Shown: piece by piece, positions 17,452-21,217 of the stretch | How the letters are laid out: every line of letters starts with the position of its first letter | How positions within the stretch are numbered: position 1 is the stretch's first letter | Position numbers and translations under genes: made by a program | The notes under the pieces: generated by a model | The model's input: only the letters and a program-made list of their open reading frames with translations | Told to the model about the DNA's origin: nothing | Database searches by the model: none | NCBI RefSeq assembly: GCF_056746865.1 | Contig: NZ_CM163382.1 | Direction: 5' to 3' (one strand) | DNA: 64,000 nt

Positions 17452-17677
17452 GATGATTTCCTGTCGAAACGCGTTCATTTGACATCATGACTATAGACGC
17501 AAAAGAGCAAATAACATTTCTTCACAACGCTTGATATTTTGTCTTATCGTCTGGTATTTTCTTTTTCTTAATCAGAATCACAAAACAAAAATCATGATTA
17601 ACTATTTGATGGTATTAGATTAATTATTGACTAAGATAGTTGGTGTTTGTAATCAAAAAACTACTCAGGAGTCTGAT

Positions 17678-18532
17678 ATGGATGCTCTTAGCCGTTTGTT
17701 GATGCTTAACGCTCCACAAGGAACGATCGATAAGAATTGCGTGTTAGGAAGTGACTGGCAACTTCCACATGGTGCCGGGGAATTGTCGGTTATTCGTTGG
17801 CATGCGTTAACGCAAGGAGCGGCGAAGCTGGAAATGCCGACGGGAGAGATTTTTACATTACGCCCGGGAAATGTGGTCCTGCTACCACAAAATTCAGCTC
17901 ATCGCCTGAGCCATGTCGATAATGAATCGACCTGTATTGTCTGTGGCACTCTTCGGCTGCAACATTCGGCGCGTTATTTTTTAACGTCTTTGCCGGAAAC
18001 GCTGTTTGTAGCACCAGTGAACCATAGCGTGGAATATAACTGGCTGAGGGAGGCGATCCCGTTTTTACAACAGGAATCCAGATCGGCAATGCCGGGAGTG
18101 GATGCTCTGTGTAGCCAGATCTGCGCTACATTCTTTACCCTCGCGGTGCGTGAGTGGATTGCACAGGTTAATACAGAGAAAAACATTCTCAGTTTGCTTC
18201 TGCATCCACGTCTTGGTGCGGTAATACAGCAAATGCTGGAAATGCCAGGACACGCCTGGACCGTCGAATCGCTGGCCAGCATCGCCCACATGTCCCGGGC
18301 AAGTTTTGCCCAGCTTTTCCGTGATGTTTCCGGAACCACGCCGCTAGCTGTATTAACAAAGTTGCGTCTACAAATAGCGGCCCAGATGTTTTCCCGGGAA
18401 ATGCTCCCTGTTGTGGTGATCGCTGAGTCAGTAGGCTATGCCAGTGAATCATCTTTTCACAAGGCGTTTGTCCGCGAGTTTGGTTGTACTCCGGGAGAAT
18501 ATCGGGAAAGGGTCAGACAGCTTGCACCCTGA
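17678..18532 (+). CDS. rclR: AraC-family reactive-chlorine-responsive regulator RclR, 284 aa
   Basis: C-terminal AraC HTH; divergent from rclABC; start trimmed to MDALSRLL. Confidence 0.8.
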   Translation: MDALSRLLMLNAPQGTIDKNCVLGSDWQLPHGAGELSVIRWHALTQGAAKLEMPTGEIFTLRPGNVVLLPQNSAHRLSHVDNESTCIVCGTLRLQHSARYFLTSLPETLFVAPVNHSVEYNWLREAIPFLQQESRSAMPGVDALCSQICATFFTLAVREWIAQVNTEKNILSLLLHPRLGAVIQQMLEMPGHAWTVESLASIAHMSRASFAQLFRDVSGTTPLAVLTKLRLQIAAQMFSREMLPVVVIAESVGYASESSFHKAFVREFGCTPGEYRERVRQLAP

Positions 18533-19059
18533 ATAAAACCGCCAGCAATCGGAGCAAAGATAATCCGCATTCCGGGAGTTGTGAGCCTTTCAACTATTTC
18601 TATTTCCAACGGTGGTTTGGGCTTTATATATTTTTTTCTGATGGACTCTAGCTCAGTTTTTAAATAAAAATGCAAACTAAATTGCTTCAATTAAATAAAG
18701 TGCCGATTATTACTTGATACGTAATTATTGTTGGTGATTTTGTTTGTACACCATCAGTGTATATCTCAATAACCCCTGAATAAGTAGCACTGAATAGGTA
18801 TAAGGGATGTAGCCTTTTTAAATGGATTTCTTATGCTAAAAATGATCGTCGATTTCCCTATAAAATGTGAGCGATGCCGAAAGAAATAAAATTAGTTATT
18901 GCATTTGAAGTTTAGATGAAAGATTATCATTTGTCATACAAATGAGGGGTGGTATGTTACTAGCCAATTAAAAAAGAACGCCATATTTATTGATGATTGA
19001 TCCCCCGGAAGGGGGGAACCATCGGGCATAAATGGGTATGAAGTAATGGAGTATTAGTT

Positions 19060-19779
19060 GTGAATGTCAATTTCTTTGTCACCTGTATTGGTGACGCCCT
19101 GAAATCAAGAATGGCACGAGACTCCGTGCTGCTACTGGAAAAACTCGGCTGTCGCGTAAATTTCCCGGAGAAACAGGGATGCTGCGGTCAGCCTGCGATC
19201 AATAGCGGTTATATCAAAGAAGCGATTCCAGGGATGAAAAATCTGATCGCCGCACTGGAGGATAACGACGATCCCATTATTTCACCGGCTGGCTCTTGCA
19301 CCTATGCCGTAAAAAGTTACCCGACGTATCTGGCGGATGAACCTGAATGGGCATCACGTGCCGAAAAGGTTGCCGCGCGTATGCAGGATCTCACCTCTTT
19401 TATTGTTAATACATTAGGGGTAGTCGATGTAGGTGCCAGTTTGCAAGGGAGAGCGGTGTATCACCCATCTTGTAGCCTGGCCCGTAAGCTGGGGGTGAAG
19501 GACGAACCACTTACGCTGCTGAAAAATGTGCGTGGACTGGAGCTGTTGACCTTTGCTGAACAGGATACCTGCTGCGGATTTGGCGGCACGTTCTCGGTCA
19601 AAATGGCCGAAATATCCGGCGAGATGGTGAAAGAAAAGGTTGCGCACCTGATGGAAGTCCGCCCTGAGTATTTAATTGGTGCTGACGTGAGTTGCCTGCT
19701 GAACATCAGTGGGCGATTACAACGGGAAGGGCAGAAAGTCAAAGTAATGCATATTGCTGAAGTGCTGATGAGCCGCTGA
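19060..19779 (+). CDS. ykgE: cysteine-rich Fe-S oxidoreductase subunit (LutA-like), 239 aa, GTG start
   Basis: CCG-type cysteine motifs (CCGQP, CCGFGG); first gene of a three-gene unit. Confidence 0.8.
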   Translation: MNVNFFVTCIGDALKSRMARDSVLLLEKLGCRVNFPEKQGCCGQPAINSGYIKEAIPGMKNLIAALEDNDDPIISPAGSCTYAVKSYPTYLADEPEWASRAEKVAARMQDLTSFIVNTLGVVDVGASLQGRAVYHPSCSLARKLGVKDEPLTLLKNVRGLELLTFAEQDTCCGFGGTFSVKMAEISGEMVKEKVAHLMEVRPEYLIGADVSCLLNISGRLQREGQKVKVMHIAEVLMSR

Positions 19780-19789
19780 GGATATAAAG

Positions 19790-21217
19790 ATGTCGATCAA
19801 AACCAGTAATACAGATTTTAAGACACGCATCCGTCAGCAAATTGAAGATCCTATCATGCGCAAAGCGGTGGCAAACGCGCAGCAGCGTATTGGGGCAAAT
19901 CGGCAAAAAATGGTCGATGAATTGGGGCACTGGGAGGAGTGGCGCGATCGGGCCGCCCAGATACGTGATCATGTTCTGAGTAATCTCGACGCTTATCTGT
20001 ACCAGCTCTCAGAAAAAGTGACACAAAACGGCGGTCACGTCTATTTTGCAAAAACCAAAGAAGACGCCACCCGCTATATTTTACAGGTTGCCCAACGCAA
20101 AAATGCCCGGAAGGTGGTGAAATCTAAATCGATGGTGACCGAAGAGATTGGTGTCAATCATGTGTTGCAGGATGCTGGCATTCAGGTGATTGAAACCGAT
20201 CTGGGTGAATACATTCTCCAGCTGGATCAAGATCCGCCCTCTCATGTTGTGGTCCCGGCAATTCATAAAGATCGCCATCAGATCCGTCGAGTGCTACACG
20301 AACGTCTGGGCTATGAGGGGCCGGAAACGCCTGAAGCAATGACCTTATTCATTCGGCAAAAAATCCGCGAAGATTTCCTCAGTGCTGAAATAGGTATTAC
20401 CGGCTGTAATTTCGCGGTGGCAGAGACCGGTTCGGTATGCCTGGTGACCAATGAAGGTAATGCGCGAATGTGTACCACGCTGCCTAAAACGCATATTGCA
20501 GTGATGGGAATGGAGCGTATTGCCCCCACGTTTGCCGAGGTAGATGTATTGATCACCATGCTGGCGCGCAGTGCCGTTGGTGCACGTTTGACGGGATACA
20601 ACACCTGGCTGACAGGACCGCGCGAAGCGGGGCACGTTGATGGTCCTGAAGAGTTTCATCTGGTTATTGTCGATAACGGGCGTTCTGAGGTGCTGGCCTC
20701 TGAATTTCGGGATGTGCTGCGCTGTATTCGCTGCGGGGCTTGTATGAATACTTGTCCGGCATATCGCCATATTGGCGGTCATGGATATGGCTCTATTTAT
20801 CCAGGGCCAATTGGTGCGGTGATTTCTCCGCTACTTGGCGGCTATAAAGATTTTAAAGATTTACCCTACGCCTGCTCTTTATGCACTGCTTGTGACAGCG
20901 TGTGTCCGGTGCGTATTCCGCTGTCAAAACTGATTTTGCGTCATCGTCGGGTGATGGCTGAAAAAGGGATCACCGCAAAAGCAGAGCAACGGGCGATAAA
21001 AATGTTCGCTTATGCCAATAGTCATCCAGGATTGTGGAAAGTCGGGATGATGGCCGGCGCTCATGCGGCAAGCTGGTTTATCAATGGCGGCAAAACACCA
21101 CTCAAATTTGGCGCGATTAGCGACTGGATGGAAGCACGCGATCTTCCTGAAGCTGACGGAGAGAGTTTCCGTAGTTGGTTTAAGAAACATCAGGCGCAGG
21201 AGAAAAAGAATGGATAA
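19790..21217 (+). CDS. ykgF: 4Fe-4S ferredoxin-domain lactate-utilization protein (LutB-like), 475 aa
   Basis: CIRCGACMNTCPAY and CSLCTACDSVCP ferredoxin motifs; DUF162 region. Confidence 0.8.
   Translation: MSIKTSNTDFKTRIRQQIEDPIMRKAVANAQQRIGANRQKMVDELGHWEEWRDRAAQIRDHVLSNLDAYLYQLSEKVTQNGGHVYFAKTKEDATRYILQVAQRKNARKVVKSKSMVTEEIGVNHVLQDAGIQVIETDLGEYILQLDQDPPSHVVVPAIHKDRHQIRRVLHERLGYEGPETPEAMTLFIRQKIREDFLSAEIGITGCNFAVAETGSVCLVTNEGNARMCTTLPKTHIAVMGMERIAPTFAEVDVLITMLARSAVGARLTGYNTWLTGPREAGHVDGPEEFHLVIVDNGRSEVLASEFRDVLRCIRCGACMNTCPAYRHIGGHGYGSIYPGPIGAVISPLLGGYKDFKDLPYACSLCTACDSVCPVRIPLSKLILRHRRVMAEKGITAKAEQRAIKMFAYANSHPGLWKVGMMAGAHAASWFINGGKTPLKFGAISDWMEARDLPEADGESFRSWFKKHQAQEKKNG

Follow-up and report, generated by a model that had tools for sequence, protein, structure and literature searches.

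Why does E. coli keep a long stretch of apparently empty DNA between rclR and ykgE, and what is the GC-rich hairpin near its downstream end? We addressed this question in a stretch of 64,000 nucleotides from contig NZ_CM163382.1 (RefSeq assembly GCF_056746865.1), hereafter the window, which contains rclA on the minus strand, rclR on the plus strand (17678-18532), and ykgE-ykgF-ykgG reading from a GTG at 19060. A preliminary description made from the letters of the window alone had noted an unusually long noncoding gap, and this was borne out. The stop codon of rclR ends at 18532, leaving 527 bp (18533-19059) ahead of the GTG, and RefSeq annotates nothing between the two genes in strain 118UI, W3110, or MG1655. 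The gap is 100% identical to that of E. coli 118UI and 96% identical to that of K-12. It was found in 5,168 of 5,426 complete E. coli genomes (95%), with a median of one and a maximum of two copies per genome (5,160 genomes). We consider it probable that the gap is an ordinary control region of ykgEFG that has been lengthened by gene decay, and that the hairpin is at most a passive structure of the leader. The functional core of the gap, a YieP-repressed and anaerobically activated ykgEFG promoter, is already published. What we add is that the hairpin probably belongs to the transcribed leader and lies outside the promoter and operator; that E. coli appears to have lost the adjacent lactate permease, and its lineage dld, from an ancestral lctP/dld-ykgEFG lactate cluster; that the YieP-controlled promoter of this cluster seems to have been retained; and that the link between the YieP operator and ykgE is kept as far as Proteus, Pragia, and Leminorella.

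The promoter of K-12 ykgE was dissected on a 160-bp tile by Reg-Seq (Ireland et al. 2020, eLife, PMC7567609). Using the published YieP energy matrix, we anchored this tile on the window, such that tile index i corresponds to position 18849+i and the tile ends at 19008, covering only part of the hairpin. K-12 and the window differ at three positions in 18860-18960, none of which falls within the promoter, operator, or activator elements. The -35 hexamer is TTGCAT (18899-18904, plus strand), which coincides with the Reg-Seq information footprint at tile indices 48-55 and is invariant in Escherichia and Citrobacter. The -10 hexamer is GATTAT (18922-18927, plus strand), at Reg-Seq RNA polymerase position 74, where the strongest positions of the footprint are A2 and T6 (peaks at indices 74 and 78). 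Together they form a sigma-70 promoter (TTGCAT-17-GATTAT) whose spacer lies within the usual 16 to 18 nt; in Escherichia and Citrobacter this spacer is constant in length and drifts in sequence, and GGATTAT at the -10 region is invariant across genera. From the position of the -10 hexamer we infer that transcription starts at about 18934, which would give ykgE a 5' untranslated region of about 126 nt. Such a start places the YieP operator over the start site and gives the FNR-type site a class-I position near -61.

That activator site corresponds to a footprint assigned to FNR at -102 to -80 of the tile, on the basis of an anaerobic footprint (PMC7567609). According to the source data of figure 6 in that study, it occupies 18862-18884 of the window (plus strand), centered at about -61 from the inferred start. 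An FNR or CRP site is taken here as two inverted half-sites (TTGAT-N4-ATCAA or TGTGA-N6-TCACA). The footprint contains a single CRP/FNR-type half-site, TGTGA at 18866-18870, with a poor partner half, CCGAA, and the surrounding block AAAATGTGAGCGnnGCCGAAAGAAATAAA hardly varies among Escherichia and Citrobacter. We picture a weak sigma-70 promoter that would be aided by a class-I activator of the FNR/CRP family. The product of the operon is homologous to the L-lactate oxidase of the lutABC type: YkgEFG is a respiratory L-lactate dehydrogenase whose fitness defect on L-lactate depends on nitrate (PMC9701030).

Several other candidate elements were rejected. A simple promoter scan missed the true ykgE promoter, in which TTGCAT matches at just three of six positions, and picked TTGTCA-16-TATGTT (18931-18958) instead. 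This alternative is the one on which the Reg-Seq design was centered, with a computationally predicted start at 18964 (PMC7567609). It shows no footprint in the yieP deletion, and in the cryptic clades it is destroyed by a 4-nt indel together with sequence changes. A NarL heptamer on the minus strand (TACCCAT) depends on a T that is specific to the window, other E. coli having C, and an ArcA box reaches only 8 of 15 matches. The AtoC motif GAAATAGAAATAGTTGAAAG, predicted at 18587-18606 on the minus strand (PMC3118216), was ChIP-negative in the same study.

Overlapping the predicted start site is the operator of the GntR-family (FadR-type) regulator YieP, the palindrome ATTTGTCATACAAAT at 18929-18943. 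Its sequence in the window is the same as in K-12 and matches exactly both the Reg-Seq energy matrix and logo (indices 80-94) and the motif derived by ChIP-exo, atTTGTaTGAcaAAT (PMC7642389). The footprint of YieP at ykgE is lost in a yieP deletion, and the protein was named by mass spectrometry and knockout (PMC7567609); ykgEFG rises about 10-fold in yieP deletion strains in the study combining ChIP-exo and RNA-seq (PMC7642389). Between them, these two studies demonstrated binding and repression at ykgE in K-12 and W. Bound to the start site, YieP would block initiation at the ykgEFG promoter. The published locus and ours are thus the same, with -35, -10, operator, and activator elements identical or near-identical; they differ in strain (K-12, as opposed to a 118UI-like strain in the window) and in extent, since the published tile stops at 19008. 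The preliminary description had suggested that the gap might hold the ykgEFG promoter or operator. This was right, given published footprints that span 18862-18943, but the hairpin it pointed to lies downstream of them, within the predicted leader.

To place these elements in an evolutionary context, we scanned one genome per species, which yielded 72 ykgE loci. Three blocks are essentially invariant among three cryptic-clade Escherichia and about 12 Citrobacter species: AAAATGTGAGCG..GCCGAAAGAAATAAA; TATTGCAT; and GGATTAT with TTTGTCATACAAAT. In the cryptic clades the gene upstream of ykgE is an aldo/keto reductase and not rclR; the control block therefore travels with ykgE. Conservation across Enterobacteriaceae, which had been proposed as a check, thus extends to the promoter elements and YieP operator from Escherichia to Citrobacter, the operator having the same sequence in all loci of both genera. 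Further out, Leminorella, Pragia, and Proteus likewise carry a TTGTnnnACAA site ahead of ykgE; about 0.006 such sites per locus are expected by chance. Judged from these sequences, the regulatory link between YieP and ykgEFG appears to be ancient. The YieP-type palindromes in Leminorella, Pragia, and Proteus vulgaris (ATTTGTAATACAAAT, AATTGTCATACAAAT) lie 79 to 185 nt before ykgE.

The length of the gap has a separate explanation. Its left end carries a fragment of an L-lactate permease gene (LctP, PF02652) on the minus strand at 18520-18657, corresponding to residues ~321-365 of 524. A tblastn search of the window with LctP of Citrobacter braakii recovered 46 amino acids at 48% identity (E = 9e-8), extending to 18657, and BLASTP of the core VERLTTPGMRIIFAPIAGGFIQGAS (18520-18594, minus strand) gave 76% identity over 25 amino acids (residues 341-365, E = 6e-10). 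The full-length Citrobacter protein, 524 amino acids encoded divergently upstream of ykgE, matches PF02652 with an E value of 1e-124; the window fragment alone is too short and received no Pfam assignment. The 77-amino-acid minus-strand open reading frame at 18457-18690 is, by this homology, a relic and not a gene. Because the last 13 nt of rclR lie within the fragment, RclR may take its C-terminal tail from the antisense strand of a dead gene.

Between this relic and the activator footprint lies an AT-rich spacer (18658-18861, 26 to 35% GC) that is collinear with the part of the Citrobacter lctP-ykgE spacer lying upstream of lctP. In a global alignment, window positions 18640-19059 ran collinear with the 559-bp divergent spacer of one Citrobacter locus (L012, 2420-2979), and blastn returned blocks for 18661-18731 in about nine Citrobacter loci. 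Open reading frames of the spacer are at most 31 amino acids and unconserved, and no small open reading frame of the gap is conserved. A terminator for rclR, sought in 18533-18645, yielded no convincing structure (z = +0.7). The gap is long, then, because it is a scar, made up of a ~140-bp fragment of the lactate permease and about 200 bp of AT-rich former divergent spacer.

The same homology ties the locus to a known class of gene clusters. In Bacillus, Shewanella, and Vibrionaceae, lutABC or lldEFG clusters encoding an L-lactate oxidase homologous to YkgEFG have a lactate permease adjacent. Relatives of ykgEFG with lctP alongside have it divergent in Citrobacter and codirectional in Pectobacterium and Photobacterium. 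E. coli differs in that its permease has been cut down to the ~140-bp fragment, with rclR abutting.

The hairpin sits about 60 to 100 nt downstream of the -10 hexamer and operator, within the predicted leader. In the preliminary description it ran from about 18995 to 19020, roughly 40 bp before the GTG. Its end and its distance from the start codon were correct, the stem ending 43 nt before the GTG, but it begins at 18999, so that its start had been placed 4 nt early. This GC clamp, gatcccccggaaggggggaacc (uCCCCC-GGAAG-GGGGGa; 18999-19020, plus strand; -15.1 kcal/mol), has the core CCCCC-GGAA-GGGGG(G) at 19002-19016. It forms the apex of an imperfect stem-loop of 59 nt (18982-19040, plus strand; approximately +49 to +107), which has a basal stem rich in AU and GU pairs and a middle stem, GATTGAT/ATCGGGC. 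By energy alone the hairpin is marginally beyond chance: the 30-nt clamp folds at -15.1 kcal/mol (z = -1.9), matched by 12 of 200 dinucleotide shuffles, and the 59-nt stem-loop at -21.7 kcal/mol (z = -2.2), matched by 7 of 200. Folding of the whole 5' untranslated region is not unusual (z = -0.6).

An RNAalifold consensus of 12 distinct Escherichia leaders returned the same 59-nt structure, with 95.8% of paired cells in the alignment able to pair, compared to 40 to 48% when partners were slid by one to three columns. In the lower helix of 16 bp, six pairs show a one-sided change, all of which are still paired (G.U to A-U or G-C). Of the four pairs in the clamp helix, three vary solely by breaking. 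Overall, one pair in Escherichia changes on both sides and seven change on one side while preserving pairing, for a covariation score of 0.117 compared to 0.095 in shuffles (reached by 4 of 500), in a sample that amounts effectively to three or four lineages. Within E. coli, no part of the leader is more polymorphic than the apex: its loop reads either GGAA or GGTG, slippage has given G-runs of five, six, or seven residues, and O157 has CCCCGGG. The ST131 allele, GGAGG, breaks the clamp (-9.0 kcal/mol, z = 0).

Outside E. coli, the cryptic clades have the middle stems GTCTGAT/ATCAGGC and GCCTGAT/ATCGGGC, and Citrobacter has GCTTGAT/ATCAAGC or GTTTGAT/ATCAAGC with an apex that is just ATCGCGAT. 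E. coli has U.G at one middle-stem position where the cryptic clades have C-G and Citrobacter has U-A; with a hand-anchored alignment of few lineages, this is suggestive only. The hairpin keeps its distance to the ribosome-binding site and not to the promoter, as the 5' untranslated region of Citrobacter is about 90 nt longer and still has a hairpin at the same place before ATGAAGCAATGGAG. Downstream of the clamp comes the translation initiation block GCATAAATGGGTATGAAGTAATGGAGTATTAGTT (19024-19059, plus strand), with the Shine-Dalgarno sequence GGAG at 19048-19051 before the GTG. Within it, ATAAAyrG.AATGAAGyAATGGAGTA is common to Escherichia and Citrobacter, with a diverged form in Tenebrionibacter and Intestinirhabdus. 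When metagenomes were scanned for diverse leaders, all sequences recovered were of the Citrobacter type, and they contributed one further U.G variant; the block is invariant in all of these contigs except one (L104).

Taken together, these data indicate that the hairpin is probably a weakly conserved stem-loop of the ykgE mRNA leader and neither an operator nor a small RNA. Its 6-bp clamp (-15.1 kcal/mol) is a GC-rich stem-loop of the kind found in intrinsic terminators. The resemblance to a terminator or intercistronic attenuator goes further: the GC-rich stem tops an extended stem rich in AU, and an A-run precedes it. However, no U-tract follows either the clamp (AACCAUCGGGCAUAAAU) or the extended stem (AAGUAAUGG), and a terminator scan of the gap, including the hairpin, found no terminator-like site. 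In E. coli the hairpin would be transcribed as part of the leader and, lacking a U-tract, would not terminate transcription. Two other classes were rejected. A REP/BIME or boxC-type repeat does not fit an element at a single place per genome, with one exact copy in the window, and a CsrA-binding hairpin does not fit a loop whose GGA is not conserved (GGAAG in the window, GGUGG in K-12, BL21, and O157, and CGCG in Citrobacter).

A plausible origin for the hairpin comes from Citrobacter gillenii. There (locus L008, 1030-1120), the same activator block, -35, -10, and YieP operator lead into a Shine-Dalgarno sequence and the beginning of dld, whose product carries PF09330 and PF01565. Downstream of dld comes a hairpin, CCGGCGGC-GATGT-GCCGCCGG-UUUU, 30 nt before the ribosome-binding block of ykgE; its tract of only four U residues is below the threshold of the terminator scan. 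In species of the C. freundii complex, the leaders consist of the 5' untranslated region of dld joined to the last ~85 nt of that gene, a sequence arrangement that indicates an internal deletion of dld. On the simplest history, the ancestral cluster had lctP reading leftward and, rightward from the YieP-controlled promoter, dld, the hairpin, and ykgEFG, with different lineages losing different parts. The hairpins of E. coli and C. gillenii occupy the same position, and their flanks are alike only patchily (TTTTTATT... upstream; an A-rich stretch and ATGAAG downstream). Because of this shared position with a terminator-like hairpin, we read the E. coli hairpin as a decayed intercistronic hairpin, which on these sequence comparisons is its most likely identity. 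It would descend from the terminator-like element between dld and ykgE, any U-tract having been lost. As a separate observation, C. gillenii (L008, 1030-3000; also L010) has a degraded lctP upstream, with its start codon changed from CAT to TAT and no open reading frame, and the C. freundii complex has kept lctP alongside its internally deleted dld.

If the hairpin acts at all today, its role would be at most passive, protecting the 5' end of the mRNA or insulating the ribosome-binding site. Stabilizing stem-loops of the ompA/papA type occur in 5' untranslated regions, and hairpins that insulate a ribosome-binding site are likewise known. By analogy, the ykgE stem-loop resembles both in being stable, in occupying a long leader at a constant distance upstream of the ribosome-binding site, and in keeping its pairing while its sequence drifts. 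It differs from the ompA/papA type in that it begins near +49 and not at the extreme 5' end of the predicted transcript. We have low confidence in any specific present-day function. The conservation of the arms and the pair-preserving changes could reflect selection for an active role.

Such an active role is the alternative that fares best, and we regard it as unlikely. It holds that the 59-nt stem-loop and the conserved 35 nt before the GTG form a cis-regulatory leader RNA that controls translation of ykgEFG or the stability of its mRNA. It would respond to a signal as a thermosensor, as a binding target for a small RNA or protein, or by switching the C-run between pairing to the G-run and pairing to the GGAG Shine-Dalgarno sequence. 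Both arms of the stem and the block before the start codon are the best-conserved parts of the leader apart from the promoter, and every substitution in the lower stem keeps pairing. A different hairpin at the same place in Citrobacter, another in the leader of Proteus, and one in Photobacterium with clear compensatory changes 1 to 3 nt before the Shine-Dalgarno sequence of lldE also speak for activity. However, Rfam 15 covariance models matched nothing in 17500-20000 on either strand (E ≤ 10), the folding energy is just marginally better than that of shuffles, and the apex is polymorphic and broken in ST131. Furthermore, the loop GGA is absent in K-12 and the C-run in Citrobacter, we found no literature on posttranscriptional control of ykgE in E. 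coli, including control by Hfq or small RNAs, and the independent lineages are too few for statistics. A broader version, somewhat less likely again, would make the stem-loop and the invariant ~35 nt an undescribed, YieP-independent cis-regulatory RNA of lutA/lldE/ykgE-type operons; it draws by analogy on the covarying hairpins just upstream of the ribosome-binding site in Citrobacter, Proteus, and Photobacterium.

It is quite improbable that the palindrome of the hairpin acts as DNA, as an operator at which a second transcription factor would form a roadblock downstream of the promoter. The Citrobacter element is a perfect and nearly invariant 22-bp palindrome (GCTTGATATCGCGATATCAAGC), and Lrp and Nac are listed as regulators of ykgE (PMC10100675). 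Against this, it is pairing and not sequence that is kept between Escherichia and Citrobacter, and the variants are of the G.U type, meaningful in RNA but not in duplex DNA. Moreover, the arms are separated by an 8-nt apex in Citrobacter compared to 19 nt in E. coli, and Reg-Seq, whose tile reached half of the element (tile indices 150-159), recorded no footprint there.

Least probable is an unannotated small RNA, as the preliminary description had also raised, or a small protein: the gap is long, is present in 95% of E. coli genomes, and has one weak plus-strand promoter-like match (18603-18632), but it lacks the own promoter, own terminator, and conserved unit of a small RNA gene, its three promoter-like matches are no excess over the 1.9 in shuffles, the only promoter is that of ykgE, Rfam and the terminator scan came back empty, a pseudogene fragment makes up the left part and a poorly conserved AT-rich spacer the middle, its open reading frames are at most 31 amino acids besides the 77-amino-acid permease relic and plus-strand frames of 55 and 28 amino acids at the left end, and the supplements of an eLife 3'-end mapping study contain no entries for ykgE or rclR. 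The evidence points to no transcript besides the 5' untranslated region of ykgE, which the preliminary description had named as part of what would refute its reading.

We are left with an ordinary control region that, beyond housekeeping, is of little significance. The analysis may be useful to studies that ask how gut Enterobacteriaceae wire their use of lactate and why laboratory strains of E. coli keep ykgEFG silent.

Some further features of the leader were observed along the way. Just 5' of the Shine-Dalgarno sequence there is a mini-open reading frame, AUG AAG UAA (19038-19046), which has no Shine-Dalgarno sequence of its own and whose ATGAAG is invariant. In the cryptic clades and Citrobacter its TAA is CAA, and the frame continues across the start of ykgE, out of frame. 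In Photobacterium and relatives (loci L045-L065), a short GC-rich hairpin lies 15 to 35 nt before the start of lldE/ykgE and 1 to 3 nt 5' of the ribosome-binding site ACUGGAGCAAU. It lies downstream of a terminator-like hairpin of lldP, and its compensatory changes, identified by eye, are GGCGG/CCGCC, AGCGG/CCGCU, ACGGU/ACCGU, GACAGC/GCUGUC, and GGUAGC/GCUGCC. This hairpin may be a functional intercistronic element.

Individual strains and contigs carry variants of the control region. In a Citrobacter-type metagenome contig (PPYF01430986.1), a microhomology deletion has fused the -35 sequence, TATTGC, to TTGATATCGCG of the hairpin, so that the -10 and the YieP operator are gone, along with most of the leader. 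In O157:H7 strain F6321, compared to window positions 18922-18945, the -10 has changed from GATTAT to GACTAT and the operator flank from CAAATGA to CAAATAA, and the 3' arm of the stem carries a C-to-A substitution. Expression of ykgEFG may differ in the O157:H7 lineage. E. coli 1218KP (NZ_CM173878.1; locus L003, 1-4100) has a second, divergent copy of ykgEFG directly upstream; after this copy come a truncated GntP-family permease and, about 100 bp before ykgE, an IS5-like element, ISKpn26. The ISKpn26 insertion has replaced the native promoter and YieP operator and kept the hairpin. For BL21(DE3), a difference in the ykgEFG promoter sequence and a weaker derepression upon yieP deletion have been reported, with yohJK behaving likewise (PMC7642389). 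Over the 205 nt before ykgE, the sole change in BL21 relative to K-12 is a T-to-A substitution at window position 18988, which turns CATATTTATT into CATATTAATT within the 5' arm of the basal stem. Because yohJK shows the same behavior in BL21(DE3), a cause acting in trans is likelier than the promoter difference.
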